Below are positions 3,726 to 62,420 of a stretch of DNA of 64,000 bases, in pieces. The number at the start of each line of letters is the position of its first letter. Within the stretch, counting starts at the first letter, position 1. Where the stretch lies: contig CM114271.1 of NCBI GenBank assembly GCA_050084515.1, forward strand, positions 42,842,001 through 42,906,000, given 5' to 3'. Made by a program: the position numbers and the translations under genes. Origin of the DNA: Blasia pusilla (taxonomy: Eukaryota). The notes under the pieces are model-generated. The model saw only the letters and a list, made by a program, of their open reading frames with translations. It was not told the DNA's origin and did no database searches.

Positions 3726-10672
<6,947 letters not shown>

Positions 10673-40348: not shown

Positions 40349-41510
40349 GTGAAATCACTTAAAGAGCATATGTTACCCCAAAGGAACATAGTGCCAAAAA
40401 TTCTCTATTTATCCAAAAAGCGAGTGGGGAAGTTGGGTTTAGATTACAACGTGATCCATATCCACATGGGTATATATTATTTCATGGAGATTTTAAGTAC
40501 TCGTGAGTTAGACACATGGAGGACTCAAAGGCATGGAAGCATGTGGAATACCTATATTCTTCCTTTAATAGAGAGAAGAGGGATTTTTGGTTTGGCTTAG
40601 ATGGCTTAAATCCTCGATGAAAAAACGACAAGTTCATGGTCGACTTGGCATGTATTGTTAGTGAATTACAACTTGCCCCCGTGGTTGCAAACCAAACTTT
40701 TTTTTTCCTCCAATTGAAACTAATCATCATGAGCAAAGAAAGTATCACTAGGAAGAACATCCACACATCCTTGGCTCCACTTATAGAGGAGTTTAAACAA
40801 TTGTGGAAGGACGTTTAATTTCACGACATGAGACAATTGAATGGTGAGTGGAAAATTACTTTTAGAGCCCTCATATATATTATGAACCATCAATAACTAC
40901 CCAAGTTATGGATTAATATTTGGACAAAGTTATGGTGGCAAGCTTGCTTGTACCTTATGTGGGAAAAATGTTGATTCCAACTTCTCCAAAGAGTGTGGAA
41001 CACCAATATATGGTGGTCATCGGCATCATTTCCAAAGGGATCCTAACTATAGGGGCATAAATTATGCTTCACTTTTTGAAAGAAAGAACTTGAACCACTT
41101 CTACATAGAATTGAGGTTGTAGAAATTCTAAAATGGGCGAAAGAGAAGTACATGTACGACAAGAGTGAGGGTCGAGAAGATGGTCCTCTAGACCCTTCTA
41201 AGAGAACATATGTGAAGCGAAAAGGAGTGTTGTTTGATCTACCTCATTGGGAAGTATCCTTCAAAAACAAGTTGAGAGAATCGTAAAGTAATTTTGAGGT
41301 TTTTTTTTGTAAATTAAATATTTCATATGGTCTATCCTTGATCGTGATGAGTCAATAACACTACTAATTTGATGTACTTTAGATATTATGCACGTGGACA
41401 AGAATATCGTAGAGAATGTAGTAAGAAAAATCTTTGGGGTTAAAGACATAGTGGAAGTGCGTCAAGAATTGGAGAAGAGGGGAATCCAACGCTGCATATG
41501 GACAAAGTTT
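40349..41510 (+). mobile_element. CACTA (En/Spm) Tnp2-type transposase fragments
   Basis: MLPQRNIVPK..YLSKKRVGKLGLDYNVIH; AWKHV; FGL.DGLNP; LVNYNLPPW; LAPLIEEFKQLW; LFDLPHWE; DIMHVDKNIVEN. These are the ordered Transposase_21-type motifs, frameshifted. Confidence 0.85.
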
Positions 41511-41639
41511 GTGTCTATAGACACGTCAATATCCGTGGACTTACGGCTGTCCTATAGAAATAATTTTCCATGTGGGCCCCATATCCCCACAAAAAAATGC
41601 ATTCATGCATATACCTCGAGACCACATAACAAAATCAAC

Positions 41640-42110
41640 GTAAAAATGGCTCACGCGGCCAAGTCCACTCTCAAATCTACATCAGTATATTGAGCCACAT
41701 CCACGCTATGGTATGAGGGAATTCGAATGCTACCATCTTAGTTCCCACACACACACAAGCAAGAGAGGTACTCTAAAGGCTCAACATGAGAAATATAGCT
41801 GGAGAAAGCCATCTCTTTCTCTCTTATATCCTTGGGAAGAGCCAAAAGGCTTCCCCCAAACATAGCTTCTACAACAATAACCTACGATCACGGGTTATCG
41901 GATGACTGTTGACTCGGTCAATGGATCACCAAGACAAAAATAGCAAAGAAGAGGATTTTTCATAAAAAATTATCCCAACGTAATGGATGTGTGATAACCT
42001 CATCCGACACCTCAAGAGAAAGTTACACCCAAATCACATGTTGACCATCTATCTTGTTGACGTGGTAGAACTCTCTACATGTCTACTTGCTAAGATGTGG
42101 CAAAGTAGAG
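41640..42110. repeat. Dispersed LTR-like repeat related to 11400-11940
   Basis: Shares sequence blocks with 11400-11940 and lies just after the point where the CACTA coding remnant breaks off. Confidence 0.5.
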
Positions 42111-43839
42111 TTTGTTGTTGTGATGACTCAAGATGTTGCGAGAGTGACTGAGCCATAGAGAGGTGAATTTGAGATAGACCATGGGAGGAGAATAATGGCC
42201 GCTAGTCCAGGATTCCCCAATCTTTCACATTATTGAAGGTACTACACACACTGTCAATGGTGCGTGGATGAACAACGATGCCCATAGGTGGCACATATAT
42301 ATTGACATCACAAGGAGTTGGAGAGGCAAGGTGATGCAACGATCACATTGGCAATATTCGCCGATAGTGTTAGCTAGCCATGAGAGTTTTTGAAAGGGAG
42401 CATCCATGCAAAGGACATCCCAATAGCAGATAATCCTACTGGGGGACATGCTATAATTGGTGTCTGGTCCCATGGTATTGGTGCTAAGATCTCTTCATCA
42501 TTGTGGGATATGAGCAGGGATGTGTAGATGAGTTCCGACAAGGTAATGAGTTAGGAGTGGATCCATACTTCTATTCTAGGATAGAAAAAAGCAGGTGGTG
42601 ACGAGAATTGGGGATGTCGTCCCTACCTGCGGCCACTGCATCATAGAGCAGACGTAGATCTTTCTTGGTTATGTCCTCAGGGTTGTTGAAGTCCAGCCAG
42701 ATCGGGCAATTCTCCACCTTCCAATCAGACATGCTTTGAGCCATCTCCATGTCGTACATGGAAAATGTCTCTCCATCAGGCAAAGAAGCCCACAATTTGC
42801 AGGCTGCCGGTATTTTTTGCCATATACCTGCATTCTTACAATGGACGAGGTACCTGAATACCATAAGTTGGGTAGCTCTTAGTTTAGATGCATCGGCCGT
42901 CTGTTCCTGAAGATCTCGCTTATTCTTTGCGAAACCCCTTTTCTTCGCCTCTATTTCTTCATCAAGGTTTGCCTGAGGGTGGATCCTATCCTTGAACATC
43001 GTCTTGAAACCTGGGTTTTTTATGGGCTTGTCCCGCATGTCATACAGCCAAAGTTCAAAATCTTCAACACTCTCTAGGTTTGCTTCCTGCGGAACTGGCT
43101 CTATTCTTTTCAGCTCCACTTGGAGACCCGCCAGCATGGACTTCCCGAGAAGCCACAACGCGTCCTAGAATGACCGATCACGGAGCCAGTGGGAGATCAC
43201 TGGATTAGAGACACCCGGAGGATGGTGTACCTGTTTGGGCCTCTATGCCCTCGAGAGTGATTTTCATCAGTCGGATTCTCCTAAATTCCGAAATTCCAGA
43301 CAAGGAAAATCGATGCACGCAATTGAGAGACACTTTCTCCCCAATCTGACCTTGCGGATCTTCATCCCTCTTCCGGTGGCGCTTGATTATCGCTTTCAGC
43401 TCCTTGTAGAAATCGGGGCCAAGTTTGGGGTTGAGAATGGCAATGTAGCGCTGCATCTTGCTTCCTGTGTACTTCGTAGCTGCAGATACTGCATCTTGGA
43501 TGAACTTAGCATGCTCATACACAGACATTTTCTCCCTCCGCTCCAGCTCCAATGCAGCGCTCTTCTTGGCGGCATGTATCTTCGACCAGCAAAGGATTGT
43601 CACTACTGCATCTTGGGAAATAAATGTATTTGCCCAAGTCTTTTTTTTTTATTTGAGCACCCTTTGCCAACATCTCATTTACAAGGGCGTCGCCCAAGAA
43701 CCCCTTGTACTCTACCGGGTGCGTCGTTAGCACTTTCTTCACCTGATCGTAATCTTGGATCTAGTGGTGGGTGACATTCCCCTCTGATACAATCCTGCAC
43801 ATCCAAACTCAATATAAGAAATTTTGCAAGCTACATGGG

Positions 43840-44490
43840 TTCTTGCAACCCGTCGAACTCCGACAGGTTGTCACAGCTCATGGTCGAAATGGTAGCTACG
43901 AGCTAAATTTTGCAACCCATCGGAGTCCGACGGATTGCATTCAGATTTGTGATTGTGTGGTTTCAAGCTGTCGGAATCTGACGGGTTGTCTGATAATTTG
44001 TATGTAGAGAGTGGTCTCCACGAGAAAAGTGAACATATCAACCCGTTGGAGTCCGACAGGTTGCGCAATTTCAATTAAAACTGCAATTTGACGCCAAAAA
44101 TCTAGCTCCCCTACTACAATCACCTTCCCGTGTCAGCGAATGCAACCTGTCGGACTCCGACAAGTTGGTTTTGGCCAAAAACATCCAAAAACAGCTGCCA
44201 GTCAAGCAACTTGTCGGACTCCGACGAGTTGCTTTCTTCCAAAAACATCCAAAAACAATGGTTAGTCGAGCAACTCGTCGGACTCCGACAAGTTGCTTTC
44301 GGCCAAAAATATCCTAAACCAATGGTCAATCGAACAACTCGTCGGACTCCGAAGAGTTGCTTTCCGCCAAAAACATCCTAAACCAGTGGTCAGTCGAACA
44401 ACTCGTCAGACTCTGACGAGTTGCTTTTGACCAAAAACATCCCAAAAATAGTGGCGTGTGAAACAACTCGTCGGAGTCCGACAATTTGCA
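43840..44490. repeat. Intronic array of the 25-bp palindrome CAAC(C/T)(C/T)GTCGGA-N-TCCGAC(G/A)(G/A)GTTG, including six units at 64-65 bp spacing
   Basis: Palindrome starts at 44143, 44207, 44271, 44335, 44399 and 44464, with further copies at about 43846, 43914, 43968 and 44039. Confidence 0.9.
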
Positions 44491-44601
44491 GCAAGAGGAA
44501 ACTTACGTGTTCATGGCATGCATGGCCATCTCCACCGTCGCCATGTGATGAGGGTATGGATGAAGCACGACCGCCTTCACGCAAAAATGCGCCTCCAATG
44601 A

Positions 44602-45083
44602 GTTTGGGCGCTCCTCTGCAAACTGGGTCCACGACATGAACCTTTGGTTTCCATCCTAGATGAAGAAATACAGGTTCGACATCCAGTTGAATTTCGTCCC
44701 CTCAATCACCCTTATGAATTCCTGATCTCTCATCCTCCAGAATGTGTCGAGCGCTTCTAAGTCCTCCTCCGTAACCAGCGCTTGGGTTCCATGTTCATCG
44801 TAAGGCTGAAAATAGAATGGAGGGAAGCTGTCGACGTAGGATGTTTGGGCGCTCCTCTGCAAACTGGGTCCACGACATGAACCTTTGGTTTCCATCCTAG
44901 ATGAAGAAATACAGGTTCCACATCCAGCTGAATTCCGTCCCCTCAATCACCCTTATGAATTCTTGATCTCTCATCCTCCAGAATGTGTCGAGCGCTTCTA
45001 AGTCCTCCTCCGTAACCAGCGCTTGGGTTCCATGTTCATCGTAAGGCTGAAAATAGAATGGAGGGAAGCTGTCGACGTAGGAT
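44602..45083. repeat. 241-bp direct tandem duplication inside the ParB-like exon of copy A
   Basis: GTTTGGGCGCTCCTCTGCAAACTGGG... begins at 44602 and again at 44843. The segment is single-copy in copy B (about 53981-54221). Confidence 0.95.
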
Positions 45084-46194
45084 GTTGTCGCTGCCGATTG
45101 TTTCAGCTTCACAATATCCTCGTTAGACTGAATTTGGCGGACGTACTCCATTGTTCACAATCGGCAAAGTGGAATTCTCGGGGCGTTCTGGCCCTCCATC
45201 ACTGCCATCTGCTTTACCACCTCTCACAACGAGGACAAGGTCAATAAGCTACACTGAATTGCCAATGAATTGCAACATGGGTCTTCACATAACTCAAAGA
45301 ACAAAGATCGTATCTTACCCGCTCTAAGACTGGGTCGGTGTCTTGGCTAGCCAACTGCTCTGGGACAGCAGCTGGCAAGTCCACTGGAAACTTGTCGATC
45401 CGATAGAGGTCAATTTCTTCCGCCGGGCTTAGAGACAAGGAGGATCGCTCTCATGCTTCTTCAGCGATGTCCACCATCTCCACGCTGGCGGTCCTCATGA
45501 CCTCATCGTCCGTCACTTGAACTTCGGCTGTTTCCGCTATATTGATTGTGTCCCCGGACTTCATCGGGGACATTTCCTGCATCTCAACATTTCGGTTGGA
45601 CGGCCGGGCTTTCTTCAATGGAAATCACTTTTTCCCTCCGAGCTTTTGCCAATTCTGCTCTTCTCACCGACGCGTCCAGACGCTTATTTTCACGCTTTTT
45701 GTCGACGATCCTTTTCTTCAAGGCCTCTGACGCCTCAGCCTCTGCATCCTACTTTTCGAGTGCCTCCTTTACACGTTTTGCAAGAAGCTCTTGCTTGTGC
45801 ATCTCTGCTTCCCTTTCCCGCTCCTTGATTTCTTGCTGCCTTATCTCATTTGGCCAAACGAGGCCCTGGAGATGGTGACGTAAGAGTCCTCATGGAATTG
45901 GGAGTGAAGCTCCCAGCCTTGTTTCCTTGAGATTTTTTCCTTGTCATTGTTCCCAAAAATGCCTCCTATGGACAAGGAAATTGCTCTCTGTGCACGAGGA
46001 GTCGCCTTGCTAATGTCGTGATGAGTTGCCTTGATGAGTAGCTTGAATCGTCTCGCAATCGTCTCGCGATCGTTTGCTCGAATCGTCTCGCGATGAGTCA
46101 CGGTGTAAAGCGCCCCTTGGTATCTAGTCAGCTGTTGCGCGGAAGAGCAATTGAGATCGCGAAACAAAAAACCGGAAATGAGCGAACCCTCGCC

Positions 46195-47317
46195 TATTTA
46201 TACTTTTCAAGCCGTTGGGCTGAGTGTTGGGTCGCATTGTCGTTCCAACGGCGACGTGTCGGTCGTTATGGAAGTCTGGACGTGAAAAACACCAACCCGA
46301 CGGCTTCGACGGGTTGCACGCTTCCCGCGGATTTGAGGCATCCATCCTCCTGGCAACCCGTCGGAGACCGACAGGATGCGCGCCTTCGCCGTCTTCCGAC
46401 AAGAACGCGAGGTACCCGCGCAACCCGTCGGAGACCGGTGGGTTGCATGCTTCCCTCGTCTTGGGATAACAAGGCGGGCTACCCGCGCAACTCATCGCGG
46501 GCCGACAGGTTGCACGCTTCCTTCATGTAAGCGTTACAAGGCAAGGCACTTGCGCAACCCATCTGAGGTCGACGGGTTGCGCGCCTCCGCTGTCTTCGGG
46601 CAAGAAGGCGCGGCACGCGCGCAACTCGTCGGAGACCGACGGGTTGCACGCTTCCTTCATGTAAGTGTTACAAGGTGAGGCACTTGCGCAACCCATTTAA
46701 GGCCGACGGGTTTCGTGCCTCCGCCGTCTTCGGGCAAGAAGGCGCGGCACCCGCGCAACTCGTCAGAGACCGACGCGTTGCACGCTTCCTTCATGTTAGC
46801 GTTACGAGGTGAGGCAATTGCGCAACCCGTCCAAAGCCGACAGGTTGTACGCTTTGCTTATCTTGGGGTTATAGGTGAGGTACCAGGGCAACCCGTCGGT
46901 TAGCGACAGGTTGCACGCTTTTCTATCCCTTGCGACAACGCATAGTTCCGAGGCAACCCATTGCAATCCGACGGGTCACAAGATCTACCTTGAGTTGGAA
47001 AATCCCGCAAAAGTCCCCAAAAATTGGTTGCCTTAGCATATGCAAGCGATATCTCATGTTTGATGCTAGCAAAATCGACTCAAAAGACCATTGGTCAGCA
47101 AGAAGGGGGTACCAACCCAACGGACTCCGACGGGTTCCAACAAATAGAGGTGGGTGCTTCGCAACCAACGTCTCTGATTCCCAAATTTTGCAACCCACCT
47201 GACTCCGACAGGTTGCAAAAAAATTGAATCCATTGTGTCAGACATTCTCACCTACCAAACTTCATCTTGTCAGTCAAATTCTGTCAGGAGAATGTGAGTC
47301 CCTATTCACTATAAATT
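46195..47317. promoter_or_regulatory. Divergent promoter region between the two element genes, filled with palindrome repeats
   Basis: TATAAATA on the minus strand at 46195-46202 (TATAAACA at 55269-55276 in copy B) and TATAAAT on the plus strand at 47310-47316, upstream of ATG 47404. More than ten CAACCCGTCGGAG.CCGAC(G/A)GGTTGC-type repeats lie between them. Confidence 0.55.
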
Positions 47318-47403
47318 AAACATTCTCATTCTCATTCTCATACCCATTCCCATTTTTATCATCATTCTTATTCTCAATCTCCTCCCGGTGGAATCTTCTG
47401 GGA

Positions 47404-50283
47404 ATGGATAATTATGTGAAGCTCACTTGTGGCAGTCATCTAGCGGCCCTTCCTCAATCAGAAATCGTTCAACCGCAAGCTCGTGAGTCTTTCATAGCAG
47501 TGGATGAAATTTTTCTCTCTGTTCGATTTCTTCTCCAAATTGGAACCATCTTTGTATCCAAGGATGTTAGGGTGGACGGTACGGAAGACATAATAGTGCT
47601 TCAATTCCAGTGAAGACTAGTGCTTCAATTCCAGATGGTCCTTGAATTTTCTCCCGCCGCCAATGCGTTGGAACCCTCGAGTGTAGAAGTCCAGCATGCC
47701 CAGATCTAGAGCGCAACGGGCGGGTCAATACGTTGCAATTCCCCCCAAGAATGCAGAAACTCCATATGAGGTCGGTGCCACCACACCGCCGGGAGGCCAT
47801 CGATGTCCTCATTGTCAGGCATCCCCTTTCTGCATTGGAGCGTGTCCTGCATACATATTTTTCATTGTCCACGACTTGGGATCCACGTCACACTACACAA
47901 GGTTGGCAGTTCATGTTGGCTCCCACGCTCATCTTGTGACTGATGCAATTCAGAGACACATCAAGGAGGATGTGGCGAAGAAAGTGATCAAGCTCACAAC
48001 ACCATCACAAATTTGTGAACAATTGCTTGGAATCCCTAGACAGGGCGAGATCACGGCTGCAGAGGAGAAACAACTCCGGGAAAATCTCGCATTTCTCGCT
48101 AATCCTTAATACTTCCAGAATTTTTGCTACGTCAAATACTAGTACTGGATGGAAAGACGGCCAAAATGGATGCCATTGTCAGAATCAAGGCCAACTCTAG
48201 ATTTCCATTCATTCATAGATGGCAGTTCATGGGCCAGGGAGTCGAAGGATCCAGGGCCTATGTCTTCAAAATATCAACGACAGGTCCGTCAAGTGGCCTC
48301 GATCTTATAGATTGAATGAGGGAAGGGGAAGATCTTTACGGCAGCTGGGTAAGCTTTGATATTTGCTATAGAGTGCTGAACGGATAGTTGACAATGGGTG
48401 CTCACGCTTATGACCATGTGGAGAAGGGACTCAAAACTATATATTTATTTGAAGTAAAAGCAGAAGACGTTGGCAGTTTGAAGATGTGCTCGTTACTCTT
48501 ATTGGAGGTGGTGAAGGAAAAGAAAAGGCCACCTCCGGAAATTGATGGGTTCATGGCGGACAATGCACAACGTGGGTGGATTGCTATCAGGGAAGTATTC
48601 TAGGGTGGAGAGGTTCAACCGGAGAGGGAAAGGTCGGATGCTTTCCATTGGCAATAGTGTGTGACCCGGTACACCAAATCTTGCATCAAGGAGAATGAGA
48701 GGACAAAGCATGTCACTGTACTCCAACGCTGCAAGGATAGCAAAACCTTGAAATAGGCCAAGGAATGCCAAGAAGAACTTGATGGGTGGTGGAGGAAGCA
48801 TGCGATTGAGGGGAAGTACAAAGAGTTATGCTCTTGGCTGAGTTGGTGGACTATACGTATGAGACAATGGGGAAACTTCATACGGCAGGTGAGTTCACTA
48901 TTTTGTCTTGTCAAGCTCACGTTGAGAATTGCTTGAAAAGTTGCAGCTCAAGTTCAGAAGTGTGGGCACTATAGGGATTTCAAACCAAAGAAACCAAGCA
49001 ACTTGACGGATGCGACAGGTTGCCCGAGTGTGCAACCTATCAGAAACAGACAGGTTGGCCGAGTGTGCAACCAGTCGAAAACCGACAGGTTGCATCAATA
49101 ATTTTGGTGCAACCCGCATACAAGTATGCAAGTTGCATGTATACAAGGCCTGAAAATAGTTCGACCCGGATGGGTTTCGGATGACTTGCACTTGGATCTT
49201 CCAGCCCGGAGTGGCCAAAGGTTCTTGCAACCTGTCGGAATCAAACGGGTTGCAGTAGGTGCTTCCTGGGTGTTGCAACAGATTGGGACCCGATGGGTCG
49301 CAGAGTCGTTCATGGGATGCCTCGGCCTTGCAGCCCGTTTGGTTCCGACAGGTAGCTGATTTCTTTGACTTTTGAGTTATTTTCATTCCCTTCTCACACT
49401 GCCGTCGTTGCAGGGATGGAACATTTATGAAAATGCCCTCTGCCCCAACACAAGTGGAGCAAAAAGTGTTCATTCCTCCTGGAGGTCGTCACAACCATGC
49501 CAAAGAATTTCACTTGTGGAGGCATGCCGACAAGACCAGGCAAGAGCAATGCTACAGTCTGCAGCATCCCATATCTTCCTCACAAAAGGCATAACAAAAG
49601 GAAGGGGGCCTTCGATCTACGAGCTCTATGTCAGGGCGGCTATGAGATCGAGTGATGAAAAACTCTATGTGGAAGCCTTCAACCAGTGCATAGCAAGAAC
49701 TCCCCTCGAGCAAGACGTACACATTGGTGGGGATATTCGTGGGCGCGTTTCAAGACGTCCCATACAGATGGTGGTAGAGCAGTCCGAGCGAGACTCGTGG
49801 AGACCAGATAAGTATCTTGACTTCAGGAAAGTGAAGAGGCATCATCGAGGAACGAATCCGGTGATTGATTTGGATGAGGAAATCACGCTGCCCAAGTATT
49901 CGGGGACCCCGGACTGCTCCCAAATCCATGATGGAGTAACTTCTCCAAAATCAGTGAATGTTTTATTTCAAAAGCCAAAAATGGAGATCATCGCCACCAA
50001 AGATGTACACAGTGGCAATGGAATAGGAAGGATGTATTTGGTGAGGAACAACACTATAAATTCAAGTATCATAGGGATGTATGTGGTGCACATCTGTTGC
50101 TTTCCCACATGTTCATGTGATGACTTTGTCCAAAGAGAGACAAGTGGCAAAAGGTATTTCCCTTGTAAGGCCATGTACTATGTGTTGCTTGTAGTTTTAA
50201 GAGAGTCGGAAGTAGGAGTAGGAATCCACCAACCAATTCTGTCCCTCAAAGAAGTGCGAAGTACTTTAAACAAACCACTTTGA
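47404..50283 (+). pseudogene. Mutator-like (MULE) transposase with N-terminal GCM/WRKY-type zinc finger and C-terminal SWIM, copy A
   Basis: RRQCVGTLECRSPAC...HRCPHCQASPFCIGAC...RLAVHVGSHAH (GCM-like); VSFDICYRV, EVKAED, FMADNAQRGWIAIREVF, SDAFHW (MULE core); intron 48889-49413; PNTSGAKSVH; SWIM YVVHICCFPTCSCDDF...PCKAM. Has stops and a 633-bp in-frame deletion relative to copy B. Confidence 0.85.
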
Positions 50284-51012
50284 GGATGCAAAATAAAGTT
50301 TTAGATTGTACTTTCATTTGTCCAGAACCTTCACTTTGAGCTTGAACTCCATTCAACCCAGGGCAAATGATAGATTTTTTCCAGACCTTGGATGGAAAAA
50401 GTGATTGGTTCCACACTTATGATTCCACTGATTTTTCAGTTTTTTAAATTTGGTGCAATTTGCAACTCGTCGAACTCGGATGGGTTGCCAAAATATGGAA
50501 TAGGAAAAAAAAAACTGTGGGAGTGCTTAAGAACTGAGCAAAAAAGTGCAAAAAAAATCACACAAAAAGTTTCCTCTCTTCAAATCACATGAAACTCTCT
50601 TCAAAAAAAAGTATCTCTTTGGGTTGAAGGTAGTTTCCTCTCTCCTCTCTCCTTTCTTCCTCTCTTCCTCTCCTCTTACCGCACCTCACGTGTCGAAATC
50701 CGACAGGTTGCTTGGAAGTGGTTAAGAAGAGGCAGTGGTCAAAAAGTGAAAAGTTGCAACCCGTGAGAATCCGATGGGTTGCAAAATAAACTCTTGGAGT
50801 ACATAGATGATCACAATCGACAAGACCAAAAAAGATATTCAGCAAACTTTTACAAACACCATAATCGTTCAAAAAAATCTTGTGCTTTATAACATCCGAA
50901 GGAAGCTCGGAACTGTACATTTGATCTATTCTATGAATTCTTGTGCCTCATCATCAAATAAATCCCTACTCCAAAACGTTGTAGTCAAGTTGGGTCCTTG
51001 AGTTCTTTAAAT

Positions 51013-51402
51013 TCACTTGTCATCGTCCGAGAGCTTTTCCATAATTACTCTCGTTCTTGCCCTCCCGATTTTCGGAATCATGGGAAGTGACAATGGTATC
51101 ACTACCAATGGTGGGTATGGAACCAGAGCTCTTGGCTTTGGAGGAGAGTTGAACGCCCCAACTAGCCTGTCATAATCTGCCTTTGCCTCTTTGAAAAGGT
51201 CAAACAGGTCCTGCCTTCCCTCAAGGCAGAGAATGTTCCTGCCACTTTGCCAAACGCCTCTAATACTCGCCCCTGAAAGGCCCACTAAGTCGAACACTAA
51301 GTCACCCGGCCTTGAGCAGAGCTCGATGAGCGTTTGCATCAAGGCTGGCGACTTTTCCCTTCCTCCAAGTAAGGGGGTACCGTCTTGAATGTAAATTCCC
51401 AA
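51013..51402 (-). other. DNA amino-methyltransferase (N6_N4_Mtase-like) SAM-binding segment
   Basis: EKSPALMQTLIELCSRPGDLVFDLVGLSGASIRGVWQSGRNILCLE aligns by eye to the beta-class consensus QKPxxLxxxLIxxxSxPGDxVLDPFxGSGTTxxAAxxxGRxxIGxE (motifs X, I and II). Confidence 0.7.
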
Positions 51403-53399
51403 GGGGGGGGATTTTATAAACTATCTAAGTTGTACCCATCGGAGCATGGATCCACTAGATCCAGGATCTTAAACACTTGGAAGTTGTGCTCAGGCCGAAC
51501 AAAGCACTAAACATAGGAGTGGTCTATCTGTAAAGAAGTAGGTTGGAAGCAATGTCAGCAACAAGAAAGAGCTACTTCACCGCTGGTCTACTCTCAGTAT
51601 GGTGACACAATCTGCAACACGTCCCCAAAGAACTTCGCTTAACCCTATAGAACTTTATTATAGTCCTAACATTAGAGAAACCTGTCAGAGTCCGACGGGT
51701 TGTTTTATAAGTGTTAGTGATTTTTTTTGCCATGAGCAACCCGTCGCAAGCCGACAATTTGCTGGCTTAGAGCAACCCATTGTTGGCTAAGAGCAACCCA
51801 TCGCTTTCAGACGGGTTGCATCATTCCAGAAACACAAGGAAAAGCATAAGCATTTGCACCCGTCTGATTCCGACGAGTTGCAAGTGCTTACGCTTTTCCC
51901 GAGTCTGAGGTCGGCTTGTTGGGGTCTCTATTACCTCGGACTCTGTTGGAGTTTTCTTGGCGGAGGACCTGATCCGGCCCTCTCTCCCCGCTCGCCCGGA
52001 CAATTCCGCCTCTCGCCTTGAATTCTCAACCTCTTTTTTGGAAGACTCCGCCTCGAAATTCTTCGATCCCCTCGCCTTTTCTTTCGGACCCGCTGTAGAT
52101 TTGTCCTTGGCGATGACGACCTTGGACACCAACTCCCTTGTCTCGAGGGCTTGCTCCTCCGCATCTCCTTCGAAAAAGTCTTCAGGCTGCACAAAATTTG
52201 GGATGTCGTCCCTACCTGCGGCCACTGCATCATACACTCGTCAAAAATTATTGTCGGTGATGTCCTCGAGGTCGTTGAACTCCAGCCAGATCGGGAAATT
52301 CTCCACCTCCTAGTCAGACATGCTTTGAGCCATCTCCATCAGGCGGAGAAGCCCACAATTTGCAGGCTGCCGGTATTTTTTGTCAGATACCTGCATTCTT
52401 ACAATGGATGAGGTACCTAAACACCATCCATTGGGGAGCTCTTTGTCGAGATGCATCGGCCGCTTGCTCCTAAAGATGTTGCTTCTTCTTTGCAAAATCC
52501 CTTTTTTTCGCCTCTATTTCTTCATCTTGGTCTGCCCGAGGGAGGATGTGATCCTTGAACATCGTCTTGAAGCCTGGGTTTTTCATGGGCTTGCCTCGAA
52601 TGTCATCAAGCCAAAGTTCAAAATCTTCAGCACTCTCCAAGTTTGCTTCCACCGGAACAAGCTTTATTTTTTTCAGCTTCGCTTGGAGACCCACGAGCAT
52701 GGACTTCCCGAGAAGCCACAACGCGTCCCAGAATGACCATTCACGGAGCCAATGGGAGATCACTGGATCAGAGGATGTTGTGCCACCCTCTTTTGGGCCT
52801 CTATGCCCTCGAGACTGATTTTCATCAGACGAATTCTCCTAAATTCTGAAATTCCAGACAAGGCAAATCTATGGACGTGGTCGAGAGACACTTTCTCCCC
52901 AATCCAACCCTACGGACCTTCATCCCTCTTCCGCTGGCGCTTGATTATCGCCTTCAGATCCTTGTAGAAATCGGCGCCAAGTTCAGGATTGAGAATGGCA
53001 ATGTAGCGCTGCATCTTGCTTGCAGTGTATTTCATAGCTGCAGATACTGCAGCTTGGATGAACTTAGCACGCTCAGACGCAGACACGTTCTCCCTCCGCT
53101 CCAGCTCCAATGAAGCGCTCTTCTTGGTGGCCTGTATCTTTGACCAGCAAAGGATTATCACGGTTGCATCTTGGGAAATAAATGTATTTTCCCAAGTCTT
53201 TTTTTTTATTTGAGCCCCCTTCACCAGCATCTCATTTACAAGAGCGTCGCCCAAGAACCCCTTGCACTTTGCCTGGTGCGTGGTCAGCACATTCTTCATC
53301 CGGTCGCAATCTTGGATCCAGTGGTGGGTGACGTTTCCCTCGGATACAATCCTGCACATCCAAACACACTATAAGAAATTTTTGCAAGCTACAGGGGTT

Positions 53400-53850
53400 C
53401 CTGCAACCCATTGGACTTCGACAGGGCGCTACACCTCATGGTCAAAATGGTAGCTAAGAGCTAAATATTGCAACCCATTGGAGTCCGACGGATTGCATTC
53501 AGATTTGTGATTGCCTTGTTACAACCCGTCGGACTCCGACGGGTTGTCAGATGATTTGTATTGTGAGAGTGGTTTCGGCGGAAAAAGTGAACATATCAAC
53601 CCGTCGGAGTCCGACAGGTTGTGCAATTTCAAGTAAAGCTGCAATTTGATGCCAAAAATCAAGCTCCCCTACTCCGATCACCTACCCGTGACGGCGAATG
53701 CAACCCGCCGGAGTCCCACGAGTTGCTTTCGGCCAAAAACATCCTAAAAACAGCGGCTAGTCAAGCAAGTCGTCGGACTCCGACGAGTTGCTTTAAGGCA
53801 TACGATGTTTTGTTACCACTAGTTAAACAACTCGTCGGAGTCCGATGGTT
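53400..53850. repeat. Intronic palindrome array, copy B
   Basis: Perfect copy CAACCCGTCGGACTCCGACGGGTTG at 53522-53546; others at about 53404, 53471, 53597, 53701, 53764 and 53828. Confidence 0.9.
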
Positions 53851-55669
53851 TGCAGAAATTAAAATAAAGGAAGAGGAAACTTACGTGTTCATGGCATGCA
53901 TGGCCATTTCCACCGTCGCCATGTGATGAGGGTATGGATTTAGCACGACTTCCTTCACGCAAAAATGCGCCTCCAATGAATTTGGGCGCTCCCCTACAAA
54001 CTGGGTCCACGCCATGAACTTGTGGTTTCCATCCCACATGAAGAAATAGAGGTTACGCATCTTGCTGAATTTTGTCCCCTCAATCACTCTTCTGAATTCT
54101 TGATCTCTCATCCTCCAGAATGTGTCGAGCGCTTCCAAGTCCTCCTCTGTCACGAGCGCTTGGGTTCTATCTTGATTGTAAGGCTGAACATAGAACGGAG
54201 GGAAGCTGTCGACGTAGGATGGTGTCGCTGCCAACTGTTTCAGCTTCGCAATATCCTTGTCAGACTAAATTTCACAGATGTACTCCATTGTCCGTAATCG
54301 GAAAAGTGGAATTCTCCGGGCATTCTGGCCCTCCATCAATGCCATCTGCTTTACAATCTGTCATAAAAGGGACAAAGTCAATAAACTACACTGAATTGCC
54401 AATGAATTGCAACATGGGCCTTCACATAACTCAAAGATCAAAGATTGTTTCTTACCCACTCAAAGATTGGGTTGGTGTCTTAGCCCACCAATTTCTCTAG
54501 GACAACAGTTGGCAAGTCCACTGGAAACTCGTCGATCCGATATTGGTCGATTTCTTCTGCCGGGCTCAGAGACGAGAAAGACTGCTCTCCTCCTTCTTCA
54601 GAGATGTCCACCATCTCCACGCTGGCGGTCCTCATGACCTCATCGTCCGTCAGTTGAACTTTGGCCGTTTCCTCAGTCGATTTTATACTGATTGTGTCCC
54701 CGAACTTCATCGGGGAAATTTTGTGCATCTCCACACTTTCGGTTGGACGGGCCGTGCTTTCTTCTATGGCAATCTCTTTTTCCCTTCGAGCTTTTTCCAA
54801 TTCTGCTCTCCTCACCGACACGTCCATACGCTTCTTTTCACGCTTTTCCTTGGCAATCCTTTTCTTCAAGGCCTACGACGCCTCAGCCTCTACGTTCTAT
54901 TTTTCGAGCGCCTCCAAAACACGTTTTGCAAGAAGCTCCCGCTCCTCGATCTCTTGCAGCCTTATCTCATTGGTCGAACGAGGCCCTGGAGATGGTGACG
55001 CAGGAGGCCTCATGGACTTGGGAGTGAAGCTCCCAACCTTGCTTGCTTGAAATTTTTTTCCTCATCATTGTTCCCGAAAATGCCTCCTCCTCGACAACGA
55101 AGTTACTTTCTGTGCACGATGAGTCGCCTTGCTGATGTCACGATCAGTCGCTCGAATCGTCTTGCGATGAGTCACCGTGTAAAGCGCCCCTTGGTATCTG
55201 GTCAGCTGAAGCGCGGAAGATCAATCAAGATCGCGAAACGAAAAACCGGAAATGAGCAAACCCTCGCATGTTTATACTTTTTGAGCCGTTGGGTTGACTG
55301 TTGGGTCGCACCTTTATTCCGACGGCGACGTGTTGACCGTTATGGAAGTTTGGATGTGAAAACCACCAACCCGACGGCTCCGATGGGTTGCACGCTTCCC
55401 ACGGGTTGCAGGCGTCCGTCCTCCTTGGGTTAAAAAGCTGAGCTATCCTGGCAACCCGTCAGAGACCGACAGGTTGGGCGCCTCCTCCGTCTTCGGGCAA
55501 GAACGCGAGGTACCCGCGCAACTTGTTGGAGGCCGACGGGTTGCACGCTTCCCTCATCTTGGGGTAATAGGCGAGGTACCTGGGCAACCCGTCGGTTATC
55601 GACATGTTGCACGCTTTTCTATCCCTTGGGTAACAATGCGATAACGCATAGTTCCGAGGCAATCCCTTG

Positions 55670-58600
55670 CAATCTGGATGTCGTCAACCTCAGTGGATTT
55701 GGCCGACACCAACCTAGACCTCTGTCCGCCTACTCGTTCCTCTTGCGAGTATCAGGCAATATTTTGCTATCGTCTCTGGCCTTGAAAATGTTCAAGCACA
55801 TTCTTCTCGACGAGCTGGCGCCCACGTACGATGGTAATTGCATTTTTGAGTTGCCTCTACTTGCTGCTCCTACTCAAAAGAAAGATGGAGGACGCTTGAA
55901 GGGTATGGACAGAAAGTCTGATTTGTCATCGATGGTGTAGGCTTCAACAAACTAGTGCTTCAATTCCAGATGGTCCTTGGATTATCTCCCATCGCCAATG
56001 CGTTGGAGCCCTAGAGTGTAGAAGTCCAGCATGCCCGTATCTAGAGCACAACGAGCGGGTCAATACATCGCAATTTCCCCCCCAAGAATGTAGAAACTCC
56101 ATATGAGGTCGGTGCCACCATACCGCCGGGAGGCCATCGATGTCCTCATTTTCAGGCATCCCCTTTCTACGTTGGAGCGTGTCCTGCATACATATTTTTC
56201 ATTGTCCACGACTTGGGTTCCACGTCAGAGTACACAAGGTTGGCAGTTCATGTTGGCTCCCACACTCATCCTGTGACCGATGCAATTCAAAGACACATCA
56301 AGGAGGATGTGGCAAAGAAAATGGACGAGGTCTTTAGAAACTCTCCAGGTTCAAAGCCCGGAATGATCAAGTTAACAACAACATCACAAATTTGTGAACA
56401 ACTACTTGGAATCACGGCTGCTGAGGAGAAACAACTCTGGGAAAATCTCGCATTTCTCGCTAATCTTGAATGCTTTCGGAATTTGTTGCGTCAAATACGG
56501 GTATTGGAAGGAAAGGCGACTGAAATGGATGGCATTGCCAGAATCAAGGCCAACTCCATATTTCCATTCATTCAGAGATGGCAGTTCATGGGCTAGGGAG
56601 GCGAAGGATCCAGGGCCTATGTCTTCAAAATATCAACGACATGTCCGTCGAGTGGCCTCGATCTTATAGATCGAATGAGGGAAGGGGAAGATCTTTACGA
56701 CAACTGGGTAAGCTTTGATATTTGCTACAGAGTGCTGAATGGATAGTTGACAATGGGTGCTCACGTTTATGACCATGTGGAGAAGGGACTCAAAACTATA
56801 TTTTTTTGTGAAGTAAAATTAGAAGACGTTGGCAGTTTGAAGATGTGTTGTTACTCTTATTGGAGGTGGTGAAGGAAAAAAAAAGGCCACCTCCGAAAAT
56901 TTATGGGTTCATGGCGGACAATGCACAACCTGGGTGGATTGCTATCAGGGAAGTGTTATGGGGTAGAGAGGTTCAAAGGGAGAGGGAAAGGTCGGATGCT
57001 CTCCATTGGCAACAGTGTGTGACCCGGTACACTAAATCTTGCATCAAGGAGAATAAGAGGATAGAGCATGTCACTCTACTCCAACGCTCCAAGGACAGCA
57101 AAACCTTGAAATAGGCCATGGAATGCCAAGAAGAACCTCATGGGTAGTGGAGGAAACATGCGATTGAGGGGAAGTACAAAGAGTTATGCTCTTGGCTGAG
57201 TTGGTGGATTGTACGAATGAGACAATGGGGAAACTTCATGCCGCAGGTGAGTTCACTAATTTGTCTCATCGAGCTCACGCTGAAATTTTTTTGAAAAGTT
57301 GCACTTAAAGTTGAGAATCGTGGGCACTATAGGGATTTCAAACGGAAAAAACCAACCAACTTGTCGGATGCGACAGGTTGCCTGAGTGTTCAACCCGTCG
57401 CTAACCGACCAGTTGCCTAAGTGTACAACTAGTCGGAAACCACGGGTTGCAAGTCGCATGGCCAAATTTACTTGCAACCCGTCTGAATCCGACGGGTTGA
57501 CGGGTTTCCTGAATGTGCAACCGGTCGGAAAAGGACGGGTTGCAAGTCGCATGGCCAAATTTATTTGCAACCCGTCAAAATCAGACGGGTTGCACTAGGT
57601 GGTTCCTAGGTGTTGCAACACCTCAGGAACCGACAGGTCGCAGAGTCGTTCATGGGATGCCTTGGCCTTGCAACCCGTCTGGTTCCGACAGGTAGCTTAT
57701 TTCTTTGACTTCTGAGCTATTTTTGTTCCCTTCTCAGATAAGGGTCGTTGCAGGGATTGAACATTCATGAAAATGCCCTCTGCCCCAACACAAGTGGAGC
57801 AGAAATTGTTCATTTCTCCTAGAGGTGGTCACAAGCATGCCAAAGAATTTCACTTGTGGAGGCATGCCAACAAGACCAGGCAAGAGCAATGCTACAGTCT
57901 GCAGCATCCCATATCTTTCTCACAAAAGGCATAACAAAAGGAAGGAGGCATTCAATCTACGAGCTCTATGTCAGGGCGGATGTGAGATCTGGTGATGAAA
58001 AACTCTATGTGGAAGCCTTCAACCAGTGCATAGCAAGAACTCCCCTCGAGCAAGACGTACATATTGGTGGGGATATTCGTGGGCGCGTTTCAAGACGTCC
58101 CATACAGATGGTGGTAGAGCAGTCCGAGCGAGACTCGTGGAGACCAGATAAGTATCTTGACTTCAGGAAAATGAAGAGGCAGCATCGAGGAACGAACATG
58201 GTGATTGATTTGGATGAGGAAATCACGCCGCCCAAGTATTCGGGGACCCCGGATTGCTCCCAAATCCGTGATGGAGTAACTTCTCCAAAATTTATGAATG
58301 TTTTATTTCAAAATCCCTCAGTTGCTGGAAGTTCGCAACATCCAGTCGCTGGGATGGTTCAACAATATGGGATTCCGGTCATGGAGGTGGATTGCAACCT
58401 GAAACGGTGGCATATATCTCGTAGCAACCCTGGACGTGGACCCACTTGCAGGGCAGGATCTGATGGCATTAGGAGAGCATGCGGCACTTTCCTAAATAAG
58501 AACTGTACAAGGACTGGACGACCACTGCTTGGGTTTTGGGGACTCAAAACCTTTGATTGTTTCACGAGGACCGGAGATCAATTGAAGTACTTCTTCTGCC

Positions 58601-59256
58601 CAAATGAATCTTTCGCTTTACGGAAGTCTTATTCGGTTGCCATTGGAGCTCCGGGGAATACCCCCGTGATTTTGCCCATCGCCGTAGGTACGAATTGCAC
58701 TCAAGATGAAGTGGACAATCTTACAAGTGTCGGTTTTAGACTCATAGAGAGAGGAAGTTTAGAGCATATTTGCATTACAGAGACCTTCGCATTTTGTATT
58801 CAACCCAAGATTGATGTCAACATGTACCTGGAGAAGATGGATGATCTCAATCCACTATTTCTGTTTGAGTCTAGAAATGGGGTGAAGAGAAAAAGAATGT
58901 GTAGGCCAACGGTGGAGAGAGCAAAGCGAATTGCATCAGCTCTAGAGGAAAAAATGGAGATCATTGCCATCAAAGATGTCCACAATGGCAATGGAATAGG
59001 AAGGATGTATTTGGTCAAGAACAACACTGTAAATTCAAGTGTCATAGGGGTGTATGTGGTGCACATCTGTTGCTTTCCCACATCTTCATGTGATGGCTTT
59101 GTCCAAAGAGAGACAAGTGGCAAAAGGTATTTCCCTTGTAAGCACATATACTATGGGTTGCTTGTAGTTTTAAGAGAGTCGGAGGTAGGAGTAGGAATCC
59201 ACCAACCAATTTTGTCCCTCAAAGAAGTGCGAAGCATTCTAAACAAACCACGTTGA
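55670..59256 (+). pseudogene. Mutator-like (MULE) transposase with GCM-type zinc finger and SWIM, copy B (5' end deleted)
   Basis: PTYDGNCIFELP...GMDRK; HRQCVGALECRSPAC...RLAVHVGSHTHP; VSFDICYRV; FMADNAQPGWIAIREVLW...SDALHWQQC; intron 57247-57753 (GTGAGT...TTGCAG) full of palindromes; PNTSGAEIVH (candidate catalytic E); 466-aa ORF 57856-59256 ending in SWIM (PTSSCDGF...PCKHIYY). Confidence 0.85.
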
Positions 59257-59671
59257 GGATGCAAAATGAGGTACTAGATTGTACTTTTATTTTCCAAAAC
59301 CTTCACTTTGAGCTTGAACTCTATTCAGCCCAATGCAAATGATAGATTTTTTCCAGACCTTGGATGGAAAAAGTGATTGGTTCCACACTTATGATTCCAC
59401 TGATTTTTCAGTTTTTAAAATTTTGTGCAAATTGCAACTCGTCGGACTCACATGGGTTGCTAAAATGTGGAAGAGAAAAAAATTATGTGGGAGTGCTTAA
59501 GAACTGAGAAGAAAAATGCAAAAAAAATCACACAAAAAGTTTCCTCTCTTCAACCCAACAGAAACTCTCTTCAAATCATAGGAAACTCTCTTAAAAAAAA
59601 AGGTATCTCTTTGGGTTGAAGGTAGTTTCCTCTCTCCTCTCTCCTCTCTTCCTCTCCTCTTACCGCACCTC

Positions 59672-62420
59672 CCTTTCCTTCCTCGCTTGGGAGTGCGGTG
59701 GCGTGTACGTCTCTTCCATTTGGATTTTGGGTCCTCTCCGGAGTCTGTGGACCTCGTCGTGCCATCCGTGGAGGCTTCGGTGTCTATAGGGGACGCTTTG
59801 TCTTGTGAGGAAGAGCTTGTGTGCGAAGAGCCTTGCCGTTGATGACGCCATCTTCACATTTTTTGGGACTTCTTGGAGGCTTCGTACGCCTGTGCTGATG
59901 CGATGACTGCTTCTAGAGAGTCTCGTTGGCCCCGACACCGATACTTATCCATCTCCTTGGAGAGTTCCGACACAAAGTAGACTACCAATTGTGAGGTGGT
60001 TGTGTGGTCGAGTTTGTTAACAAGACTTCGGAACCTTTGGGTGTATTCCCTCAGGGTTTCCTTCTTTTTCCGTTTCAAATCCCGGAGCTTCGTCAGAAGC
60101 GTGTCCTCGAACTTCAAGTCGTAAAATTCATGAAGAAAGGCCTCAAGTACCCTCTTCCAGGTTTCAATGACCTCCGCTCCTAGACCCTCGTACCACTGAC
60201 TTGCCCGCTACTTTAGGAGGTCCGAGAATACCTGTAACAAATCCTCCTCCGAGCCTTCCCCATTAGCCTTAGCTACATGGGTAAACTCAAGCACAAAGTT
60301 ATCGACGTCATCTCTTTGTCCTACCGTGAACGTAGGATATCTTAGCAGCGTCTTTCTAGTGTTACCCATTGGAAAATTTCAGAGGCTAGGTCTCGGACTT
60401 GATGTTCGGGAAGGAGGAGGTAGAGGTTCCCATCTGATCGATCTGGCCAGCCCCTCGTCTCCTTCGTACCCAAAGGGATTCTAGGTTGACTCTTCGTCCG
60501 ACTGCAAAGTGGCAGGAGACGTGCTGGGGATAGCACTCATGTCCCTCTTCTTGATCTTCGGCTTTGTTCAAGGACAAAGTCTGGGAGATACACCCGTCGG
60601 TCTCCAAGACGAATGATCTTTGTGTTGCTTATTGCGTCGGTCAGCTTGCTGATCCCAAGCGGATGGCTGGGAGACTTCCATGAGTCCCTCTTGGGATTCG
60701 GGAGCTTGCTTCCGCATCCACGATTGCAACAAGGTATGGGTCCATGGGGAGAAATTGGATCTTCCTAATTCCTACGGGAGTGTGAAGGTGCTCTCAATCT
60801 ACCTGCCAGGTTTTCCGCCCATAAATAGAAGTATCGGGTCATCACCAAGTACAATTGACGTTCATGGGCAAAGCATCGTTCGGCGACGGGTTCTTTGACA
60901 ATACTAATTAGTTGTTCTATCTTCTCTAGCACTAATGCAGCAAAAAGATTGCTATCTTCTTCTATCCATTGTCTCAGGGGGATAGCTAGAGATAGGAGAT
61001 GATCTTCTGTGAGAACTAGAGGGTTGGATCTCCTAGGCGACGAGGCTTCTTCCCCCGGCCGGGGGTTACCTATCAGTCTCTCTCTTTCCAACAAATCTTA
61101 TGATCCCCGGCAGTGGCGCCAAAAGTTTGTTGCTATATGTAATATACAGGAGGTATAAGAATTGATCTTTTACATTAATTTAATGAGTTCGATCCCCAAG
61201 AGGATCATGATTATGTGGAAAGAGAGGTCAAGATGTCGTTTATCTTGTAATAGTTGTTATTAAGTGTATATAATTCAGATTCAATGACTTATCAATGTGT
61301 TCAGATCTCTCTTAGTACCAAGATTTCTTTCCTTGATTCTCTGTAGTGGAATTGAAATCACGCTCAAGTATATCTTCACTCAACATCAAAGAACGTCATA
61401 GAGACCTCAACAAGAAGATGGCTTCTCCGACTTTCGGAACTCAATCCGTCTAGGCACGCTACTCTCTGTCGAACAAAATTCTTACAACTCCGTATTGATT
61501 ATTCTAATGATGAAAGTGTTCTCTTGATTGACTCTTCACTCTGCAGACCCAATGAGAATACTCAGGCATATGCATCGCACATCAGAATGAAGAAATGAGT
61601 ACTTTACTACTCCATCAAGAATGACAAAGCTTCAAAAAAGTGTACAAAAACGAGAGGGTACTACTCTCTTGCTCGGACCATTCCTATAGCATAAGGACTT
61701 CGTAAAAGAATGATGGGGATAGCTACTTTCATGCCTCTTAAATATTCTCCAAAGTATGAGTGGTTCTAAGGATTCGAAACGTTCTTGAGGAATATGGTGT
61801 CTCTTCAAAATTTGTAACTACCTAGATCTATGGTGCTCTTTTCTTTTCCTATGATCCCTGTGAATCCGCTGAGCGTAACTATACTAACTTCCTATTTGAT
61901 AAAAAATTCGTGCCTCTTCCTACTCTAATTGTTCTAAGAGTGTGCCGCTTGAAATCACTTCGAGTCTTAGCTTCGCTTTGCTGCGAAGTCTGGACCTCTT
62001 GTGCTTCACTTGAAGACGAAGCTCTTTCTCCTAATCTGAAGACGAAGCGCTCCATTCTTCGCTCTTATTCCAGGGGCTTCGTTCTTCGTGCTTCGATAAA
62101 GAGCAAAGTACTTCTTCCTCTTCTTCTTCATCATGTTTCGTTCAAGAGTGAAGCACTTCATAAACAGGTTCTTAATAAGGCTTTGTTGTCTTTTCCAAGC
62201 TTCGCTCTTAGTCTTTAGACTTCATTATTGCATTTCTATCTCCTCTAAGGCAAATCCTTGATTTTTCATCTCTCTGCCTTTTCTTAGGAGCTTCATGATT
62301 TCTTTCAATATTAGTCATTCTTCTACTACACAAACATAATATCCAAAATCATTATGTATACACAAGTTTTCTTCGAATAAAAAGCTCTAAATCTTCAAAA
62401 GTACAAAATTGCGGGCATCA
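59672..62420 (-). mobile_element. Athila-like Ty3/gypsy 5' part: LTR (61128-62420), PBS and truncated gag
   Basis: The minus-strand LTR runs TGATGCCCGC...AGCAACA. The PBS TGGCGCCACTGCCGGGGAT (61103-61121) is of the Athila type. Retrotransposon gag KFEDTLLTKLRDLKRKKKETLREYTQRFRSLV (59854-60117). Truncated at 59672. Confidence 0.8.

Follow-up and report, generated by a model that had tools for sequence, protein, structure and literature searches.

Clustered dyad palindromes in the non-coding pockets of a Blasia pusilla repeat element: putative binding sites of an undescribed DNA-transposon-like family

The window analysed here (a 64-kb stretch of 64,000 nt from Blasia pusilla contig CM114271.1, positions 42,842,001 to 42,906,000; coordinates below are counted from its first letter) contains two neighbouring copies of one element, 81–89% identical to each other in a self-blastn comparison, whose non-coding parts carry a recurrent palindrome. 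Based on self-blastn and boundary alignments, copy A was placed at 42606–50687 and copy B at 52195–59671. Between the two copies lies a 1.5-kb segment, designated here as segment L (50688–52194), which is single in the window, extends the minus-strand gene of copy B and carries six palindromes and a methylase-like open reading frame (ORF). On the left, the A/B homology ends inside a minus-strand ORF whose frame runs into segment L in copy B and not in copy A, the latter being left-truncated inside an exon of this gene, while the right end of the homology is sharp. As judged from these alignments, the full unit is likely to consist of segment L plus copy B (50688–59671, ~9.0 kb), with putative termini, and to be abutted by the left-truncated copy A. 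The unit holds one gene on the minus strand and one on the plus strand, oriented away from each other on either side of a central gap. Terminal inverted repeats were not found in a search of 50300–59800, in which the best 25 of 66 pairs were all palindrome-to-palindrome.

Both copies are defective, their plus-strand genes being broken in different ways: copy A is without 633 bp of the large plus-strand ORF (junction 49976/49977), which copy B has at 58317–58949, whereas copy B has an in-frame stop at 57820–57822 where copy A has Trp. Copy A furthermore contains a 241-bp tandem duplication (44602–45086, 98% identical) within a minus-strand ORF block, which arose long after copies A and B had diverged.

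The palindrome follows the consensus CAACCCGTCGGA-N-TCCGACGGGTTG, for which 24 matches with up to three mismatches were obtained, all within 43846–57592; none of 100 dinucleotide-preserving shuffles contained any match at this threshold (expected number, 0). A looser catalogue, in which up to six mismatches over the 24 specified positions were allowed, comprised 49 palindromes, all of which are located in 43846–59459, while the remaining ~47 kb of the repeat-rich window yielded none at the same threshold. Approximately five extra palindromes with a 6-nt centre (24-mers) start near positions 46293, 48999, 55367, 57357 and 57426. A scan for the 9-base outer half-site with at most one mismatch returned 86 half-sites in the window, 66 of which are part of catalogued palindromes; 13 further half-sites are inside the element and outside the catalogue, most of these being parts of the 24-mer variants, and only seven fall beyond 42606–59671, compared with a chance expectation of ~10 according to our own arithmetic. 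This distribution of half-sites demonstrates that the full dyad, rather than the lone half-site, is the recurring unit. A literature search with four 10–11-mers of the site retrieved only primers and constructs.

An earlier note on this DNA, which was made from the letters alone, had described the palindrome as saturating the introns and spacers of the element, and this part of it stands: the perfect palindrome it placed at 53522–53546 was recovered by the consensus scan, the symmetric variant it quoted at 44399–44423 is exact, and the confinement of all 49 palindromes to the element stretch was evident from the motif scan of the window. The nine clusters it listed are likewise all present where it had put them, in non-coding pockets. 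Of its further claims, the spacing within one array is upheld below, while the co-variation of the arms, the constancy of a GANTC centre and a general helical phasing are not.

The palindromes fill ten non-coding pockets, all situated between ORF blocks of the two adjacent copies and representing two to three introns of the minus-strand gene, the central divergent gap, a single intron of the plus-strand gene and both 3′ flanks. In copy A, ten palindromes, including a six-unit 64-bp tandem array, occupy an intron of the minus-strand gene (43846–44488). Twelve 25-mers and one 24-mer were located between the divergent genes of this copy (46293–47215), where TATA-like boxes, read by eye, flank the central array near 46198–46207 (minus strand) and 47311 (plus strand), and four 25-mers and one 24-mer were located in an intron of its plus-strand gene (48999–49355). 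The cluster at 50463–50781 is composed of three palindromes, one of which (50463) lies 3′ of the copy A plus-strand gene, with the other two (50686 and 50757) at the A/L junction, 3′ of the copy B minus-strand gene. The methylase-like ORF is separated from the upstream minus-strand ORF by four palindromes (51678–51880), and seven, including the perfect one, are in an intron (53404–53852); the corresponding pocket (53352–53884), read as a minus-strand intron, starts with GTAAGT (~53884) and ends with a pyrimidine run followed by TGCAG (~53352). Three 25-mers and one 24-mer are present between the divergent genes of copy B (55367–55609). The cluster at 57357–57695, with five 25-mers and two 24-mers, falls within a stretch (56500–57733) that is skipped by the homologous protein P0076, residues 305/306 of which join both sides in a tblastn alignment. 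These last two pockets of the unit, 53352–53884 and 56500–57733, are the ones whose reading as introns is directly supported. Finally, a single palindrome (59435–59459) is located 3′ of the copy B plus-strand gene and represents the orthologue of the palindrome at 50463.

Regular spacing was observed in two arrays. Successive units in the copy A intron are 64, 64, 64, 64 and 65 bp apart, confirming the 64–65 bp reported previously. The larger array, in the central gap of copy A (46353–46847), exhibits a 67-bp period with a 134-bp higher order, generated by two alternating unit types, which indicates expansion in two-unit steps. Six helical turns, the approximate figure that the earlier note had given for the intron array, were therefore rejected as a design rule. 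The number of units also differs between the copies, the intron holding ten in copy A versus seven in copy B, and the promoter gap ~12 versus three.

To avoid double counting of orthologous pairs, the sequences flanking the sites (18 nt on each side) were compared for the 33 palindromes of copy A and segment L only. Flank identity between pockets was 0.256 over 446 pairs, which is the random level, and ranged from 0.27 to 0.33 within non-tandem pockets; related flanks were observed only in the tandem arrays (0.60 for the 64-bp array and 0.54 for the 67-bp array). As flanks from different pockets are unrelated, it is the palindrome itself, and not a larger repeat, that recurs.

The site was shown to be a 25–27-bp dyad, in which conserved outer half-sites, GCAACCCGTC and its mirror GACGGGTTGC, are placed around a tolerant 6–7-bp centre. 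When all 49 palindromes are aligned, the similarity reaches over 27 bp (GCAAC...GTTGC), and ten columns of this alignment (positions 1–4, 8, 17–18 and 23–25 in the 25-mer numbering) are at least 90% conserved, a level that is inflated in absolute terms because the palindromes were picked by equal-weight similarity to the consensus, although the contrast between outer and inner positions is still meaningful. Positions 22 and 9 (C) are also above average in information content, and the seven central positions hold the least. The GANTC centre, which had been presented as a constant feature, is the commonest one (23 of the 49 palindromes) and belongs to the least conserved part of the site; the entire 67-bp array is without it and has GAGAC-type centres. 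Every palindrome can fold as a 9–12-bp hairpin, and the five that were tested exhibited free energies, when folded as DNA, of −7.4 to −14.9 kcal/mol, with z values of −2.1 to −6.5.

Co-variation between the two arms is absent. In the 13-pair dyad on the 49-row alignment, 79.7% of the cells are standard pairs, compared with 79.6% when the 3′ letters were shuffled among palindromes 500 times (211 of the 500 shuffles being as high), and the covariation score was 0.128 against 0.123±0.010 in the shuffles (150 of 500 as high). Only pair 5/21 displayed an excess of double changes (seven double versus 13 single; uncorrected Fisher P=0.025). Six of these seven double changes are T:A, five of which reside in one 64-bp tandem array of copy A, the sixth being the copy B orthologue, so the T:A doubles amount to one or two events spread by duplication. 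Single-arm changes predominate elsewhere, as exemplified by pair 7/19 with 17 single changes and no double change.

C>T and G>A changes account for 99 of the 177 departures from the consensus and the reverse transitions for nine, a spectrum expected from cytosine deamination in methylated repeats. Hairpin-templated repair, which had been offered as a possible source of the symmetric changes, is not needed given this spectrum and the inheritance of the doubles within a single tandem array. Between copies A and B, identity was 84.2% for the palindromes (400/475), 81.9% for the surrounding spacer (917/1120) and 89.7% for the ORF blocks (4526/5045): the sites in these two dead copies are simply decaying. 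The observed/expected ratio of CpG is 0.74–0.80 in the element (42606–59671) and 0.54 in 1–42000, despite the C>T-dominated decay of the palindromes.

The plus-strand gene of copy B encodes the best candidate for a protein that would bind these sites. Its N-terminal exon or exons (55656–56593, plus strand), delimited by tblastn of homologues, include ORF 56045–56593 with a Cys/His-rich finger, and its C-terminal exon (57733–59256, plus strand) includes a 477-aa ORF that starts at 57823 and comprises a helical hairpin, a PARP-type-like fold and a SWIM-like CxC...CxH pattern. Pfam domains were surveyed in 148 ORFs of at least 60 aa between 41264 and 60207 at E values up to 0.05, and ORF 56045–56593 did not match any of them. 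Its first match in the protein atlas is a cluster named 'FAR1 domain-containing protein' (score 0.95), while in the cluster at row 15 of the same search 12% of the members contain GCM. A FAR1/WRKY-GCM1-like finger is, on this basis, plausibly present in the plus-strand protein.

For the 477-aa ORF, 79 homologues were identified in a representative library at E≤0.001, eight of them at E≤1e-30 with ~30% identity; a homologous-protein search gave no match for this ORF, for a 197-aa minus-strand ORF or for the methylase-like ORF. Ten of the homologues were looked up, and six of them proved to be multi-copy proteins from the liverwort Riccia sorocarpa that are named 'SWIM-type domain-containing'. 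The Pfam SWIM domain was detected in six of 46 aligned family members (best E 1e-4) and not in the ORF of the window itself, where a complete CxC...CxH pattern emerges only from copies A and B combined. The Pfam MULE transposase domain was found neither in the window ORFs nor in the 46 family members, and an RNase-H-like core was not seen in the modelled part of the protein. Resemblances noticed by eye, such as F..D.A...WIA and A-E-S-x-H stretches, are not counted here as MULE evidence.

A structural model of residues 176–477, built from 51 sequences, had a mean predicted local distance difference test (pLDDT) score of 85.9. When used as a query, it retrieved 59 chains at Z≥2, of which the top seven were all PARP-type zinc fingers (Z 5.6–3.3). 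The best match was finger Zn2 of PARP-1 (3odc_A; Z 5.6, root-mean-square deviation 3.2, 86/93 residues aligned), followed by PARP-1 Zn1 (Z 4.7), DNA ligase III (Z 4.2) and the SWIM proteins Shu2 and ZSWIM8 (both Z 3.1), with the PARP-type-like fold spanning ORF residues ~190–306. Foldseek ranked a ligase III finger (1uw0) first, at an E value of 0.29, and did not report any PDB match at E≤0.001 for either model. The structural search with the whole protein was filled by the helical hairpin, and the family profile gave no match against PDB sequences. With Z values below the level at which the tool is to be trusted, the modelled PARP-type finger constitutes a good lead, not a finding. Two strongly conserved words of the family, WFCPN and GT.LTQ.EVD.L...GF.L (the latter at least 90% conserved at nine positions), occupy the region that separates the PARP-like fold from the SWIM finger.

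The upstream ORF blocks of the copy B minus-strand gene (51824–52240, 52473–52838, 52913–53368, 53884–54264 and 54483–54872, within 51824–54872, minus strand) were not assigned to any family by Pfam or PDB sequence searches. The ParB-like binder suggested by the earlier note, which perhaps corresponds to ORF 53884–54264, is not supported, as this ORF has no Pfam match and no PDB sequence match better than E 1.8. Several Pfam rows of the survey at E values of 0.002–0.04 (ParE_like, TPR_17, FancD2, EAR, Myosin-VI, Defensin, PLA2 and Clathrin-link) were taken as chance.

Three features argue for a recognition site: a dense, element-confined dyad occupies all non-coding pockets, it turns over through tandem duplication, and its outer half-sites are conserved while the centre tolerates change. 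The palindromes would then be family-specific cis-elements of an undescribed DNA-transposon-like element and putative binding sites for an element-encoded protein, a reading for which we put the chances at about even. A sequence-specific DNA-binding protein encoded by the element would bind the palindrome clusters, the best candidate being the plus-strand protein with its FAR1/WRKY-GCM1-like finger, PARP-type-finger-like fold and SWIM finger. The dyad symmetry suggests a dimer, which could engage one half-site with each finger. Alternatively, or in addition, the protein may recognize an extruded hairpin or cruciform, as is suggested by the PARP-type fold and by the preference of PARP-1 for cruciforms and hairpins over linear DNA (PMC3176155); the one-base spacing variants fit this mode better than the dimer mode. 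Through binding, the protein would distinguish copies of its own element from other genomic DNA; this could serve to activate transcription from the central divergent promoter or to counteract its silencing, and perhaps also to assemble a transposition complex. The dimeric element-protein site put forward in the earlier note is thus retained as the best available reading, with a GCM-type finger as a plausible component and without its ParB-like candidate.

Several observations weigh against such a recognition site. Between the two copies, the palindromes have been preserved scarcely better than the surrounding spacer, and their arms decay independently; the latter is expected in dead copies, yet provides no positive sign of constraint. 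The 24-mers shift the spacing of the half-sites by one base, which would not sit easily with a rigid dimer. None of the domain assignments is strong, the window ORFs being without a credible Pfam match, the best structural match (Z 5.6) lying below the advised trust level, and the atlas recognition value of the finger ORF (2253) falling just under the 2300 mark. A metagenome contig with the same half-sites, described below, has no protein similarity to the window beyond a SWIM finger and may be a coincidence.

The strongest competitor, which we nevertheless regard as unlikely, dispenses with a binding protein. A hairpin-prone sequence would have been spread through non-coding DNA by slippage, unequal exchange and short-patch conversion, as a minisatellite-like or tiny palindromic insertion unit that is tolerated by the element. 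The two arrays are indeed plain tandem repeats, A/B conservation of the palindromes equals that of the spacer, the arms decay independently, and C>T and G>A changes make up most of the deviations, which would hold for any repeat that is methylated. However, ~20 of the 33 palindromes of copy A and segment L reside in unrelated flanks and therefore cannot be explained by duplication of a larger unit, and none of the 49 occurs in the other 47 kb of a repeat-rich window. Moreover, the outer half-sites are kept while the centre drifts, which is the pattern of a recognized site and not of selection for stem strength.

A role at the level of RNA or of single-stranded structure, in which hairpins in introns and 3′ regions would affect splicing, termination, stability or small-RNA pathways, was judged to be improbable. 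Its appeal derives from the folding of every palindrome as a 9–12-bp hairpin and from the position of most clusters in transcribed introns or 3′ flanks. Against this, the largest array lies upstream of both divergent genes and is probably not transcribed with either, the arms do not co-vary, and it is the sequence of the outer arms that is conserved, not merely their pairing. Stems of 12 bp are also, to our knowledge, too short for Dicer-type processing.

Still less probable is that the palindromes are target arrays of an element-encoded beta-class DNA methylase acting on the central GANTC, as the earlier note had also envisaged. The only element Pfam match of interest is to the C-terminal end of the N6/N4 methylase model PF01555, in ORF 51016–51420 (minus strand), residues 22–77 of which resemble the motif I end, binding S-adenosylmethionine (SAM), of beta-class N6/N4 DNA methylases, and GANTC is the commonest centre. 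The match, however, reached 19.6 bits (E 9.5e-4) against a cut-off of 26.7 and covers only profile positions 165–220 of 221, while the best solved relative, M.RsrI, was aligned over the SAM-binding motif only (E 0.0065). At the position equivalent to FxGxG, the ORF reads DLVGLSGAS, where M.RsrI reads DFFAGSGVT, which we take to be a degenerate form. Motif IV, (D/N/S)PP(Y/F/W/H), was absent from the three minus-strand frames of 41000–46400 and 50688–55400 and from all plus-strand frames of 42000–60000, and thus from every frame of either copy. In addition, conservation within the site is lowest at the centre; GANTC is missing from the whole 67-bp array, and the centre reads TTTGAAA in the metagenome contig. 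Beta-class DNA methylases in any case have many different specificities.

Least probable of all is an integrated virus-like element, whose arrays would act as replication-origin or enhancer repeats. Baculovirus homologous regions have a ~30-bp imperfect palindrome in ~70-bp direct repeats, several dispersed clusters and a dimeric activator, a geometry that matches the one observed here; the context of the present element is nonetheless non-viral and its genes have introns, there is no sequence or protein similarity to the baculovirus system, no viral hallmark gene was encountered among the 148 ORFs, a scan of viral contigs gave five single, unrelated matches only, and those relatives that have a name are proteins encoded in multiple copies by a liverwort genome.

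The occurrence of the outer half-sites elsewhere was explored with a scan for the outer arms around any 7-base centre, which returned 72 metagenome and five viral loci. In 76 of these 77 loci, a single palindrome was present, mostly in GC-rich or AT-rich bacterial-like contexts, and these were taken as unrelated hairpins. The only locus with more than one palindrome, a metagenome contig (L019, 1–4101, 54% GC) with a eukaryote-like ORF layout, contains ten palindromes of 25–29 bp, which share the outer half-sites of the Blasia element and its placement in gaps between ORFs. It differs from the element in its centre, which is TTT-G-AAA instead of GGA-N-TCC and still symmetric, with the site extended to TCCAAC...GTTGGA; the GANTC centre is clearly not needed in this contig. 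One of its ORFs displayed a sub-threshold SWIM match (E 0.0053) and could be aligned to the SWIM part of the family by hhalign (E 2.8e-4, probability 41%). Comparison of the contig with the window by tblastx, blastn, BLASTP and hhalign did not reveal anything beyond SWIM, the best extra match having an E value of 0.026 over 18 residues. As far as these sequences go, the contig may represent a second family, distantly related and still carrying the half-site, or the resemblance may be coincidental.

A bolder version of the binding-site reading can be formulated from these data, although it appears quite unlikely, if somewhat less so than the RNA-level role. According to this version, an undescribed plant or algal transposon lineage would mark all of its non-coding DNA with cruciform-forming palindromes, to be read both structurally and by sequence by its own PARP-type-finger/FAR1-finger/SWIM protein, and would share its half-sites with the unrelated marine-type contig, in which the inner stem would have been changed symmetrically from GGA.TCC to TTT.AAA. 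If true, this would represent a self-recognition code with old outer half-sites.

Among known systems, the closest layout is that of VANDAL elements, members of the Mutator superfamily in Arabidopsis. In PMC5735166, VANC21 sites are described as dense in introns and in intergenic and terminal non-coding parts of VANDAL21, where they are carried by tandem repeats whose unit number varies from copy to copy through gain and loss. The Blasia element resembles this system in having a dense motif in its non-coding parts (a restriction seen here within the window), in tandem-repeat turnover and in carrying accessory genes besides a transposase-like gene. The analogy to VANC target arrays drawn in the earlier note is accordingly apt, with the same layout and a turnover of units that is evident from the intron and promoter-gap counts of the two copies. 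The VANC motif is, however, a 9-bp asymmetric word in one orientation, in contrast to the 25–27-bp dyad observed here, and the VANC-type domains named in the same source, DUF1985 and DUF287, were not detected among the 148 ORFs at E≤0.05.

Dense clusters of an element motif are also shared with TnpA of the CACTA element En/Spm and with the AtMu1 transposase, which, according to bioRxiv 10.64898/2026.08.24.746577, bind only where their cognate motifs are dense, so that clusters define the activated copies. As described there, those clusters are terminal and the motifs 8–10 bp in length, and TnpA uses paired helix-turn-helix domains, unlike the situation in the present element. A CACTA identity, which was considered in view of the CCGAC core of the half-site, was rejected, since no CACTA transposase domain is present among the 148 ORFs.

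With respect to MULE transposases, PMC1702500 gives the domain order as a WRKY-GCM1 finger, the catalytic core and SWIM. The present element is similar to MULE/FAR1 proteins in having an N-terminal Cys/His finger with an atlas match to a FAR1-named cluster and a C-terminal SWIM-like CxC...CxH, in the same order, and in its second gene on the other strand. It differs from them in that no Pfam MULE, FAR1 or SWIM match was obtained in the window ORFs, in the extra PARP-type-finger-like domain, in the lack of an RNase-H-like core in the modelled part and in the lack of terminal inverted repeats among the pairs listed. Since no catalytic core could be demonstrated, the element was not filed as a MULE.

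The similarity to the fingers of PARP-1 and DNA ligase III (3odc, 3od8 and 1uw0) is confined to the predicted fold of ORF residues ~190–306, which provided the top seven structural matches. Sequence identity is 4–14%, Pfam zf-PARP was not detected, and there is no catalytic PARP or ligase part. The putative zinc ligands also differ from those of PARP-1: the PARP-1 finger has W-aromatic-H at the position corresponding to the family consensus WFCPN. A literature search did not yield a paper combining zf-PARP, SWIM and transposase.

As recent work on VANC and TnpA shows, sequence-specific regulators are encoded by transposons themselves, and it is the clustering of the cognate motifs that determines which copies respond; the families behind this principle are as yet few, come from Arabidopsis and maize and have short asymmetric motifs. 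The principle would be extended by a bryophyte-type element, with its long dyad in every non-coding pocket, to a new plant lineage and to dimeric or structure-specific recognition. The plus-strand protein would combine three zinc-binding DNA modules and belong to no curated family, and the element would provide a clean test system, in which a single site with two half-sites and a tolerant centre is accompanied by natural variants in spacing. Should the PARP-type finger prove real, a fold known as a sensor of DNA structure would be linked to transposon self-recognition.

Outside the element, the window is rich in repeats. Retrotransposon debris flanks the element on both sides, comprising a Ty3-type RNase H (37949–38332, plus strand) and gag and aspartic protease sequences (59857–60207 and 63227–63619, both minus strand). 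Two direct repeats of 1.8 kb (3729–5539 and 8771–10585), 87% identical and each starting at a long (GA)n run, may be the long terminal repeats of a retrotransposon.

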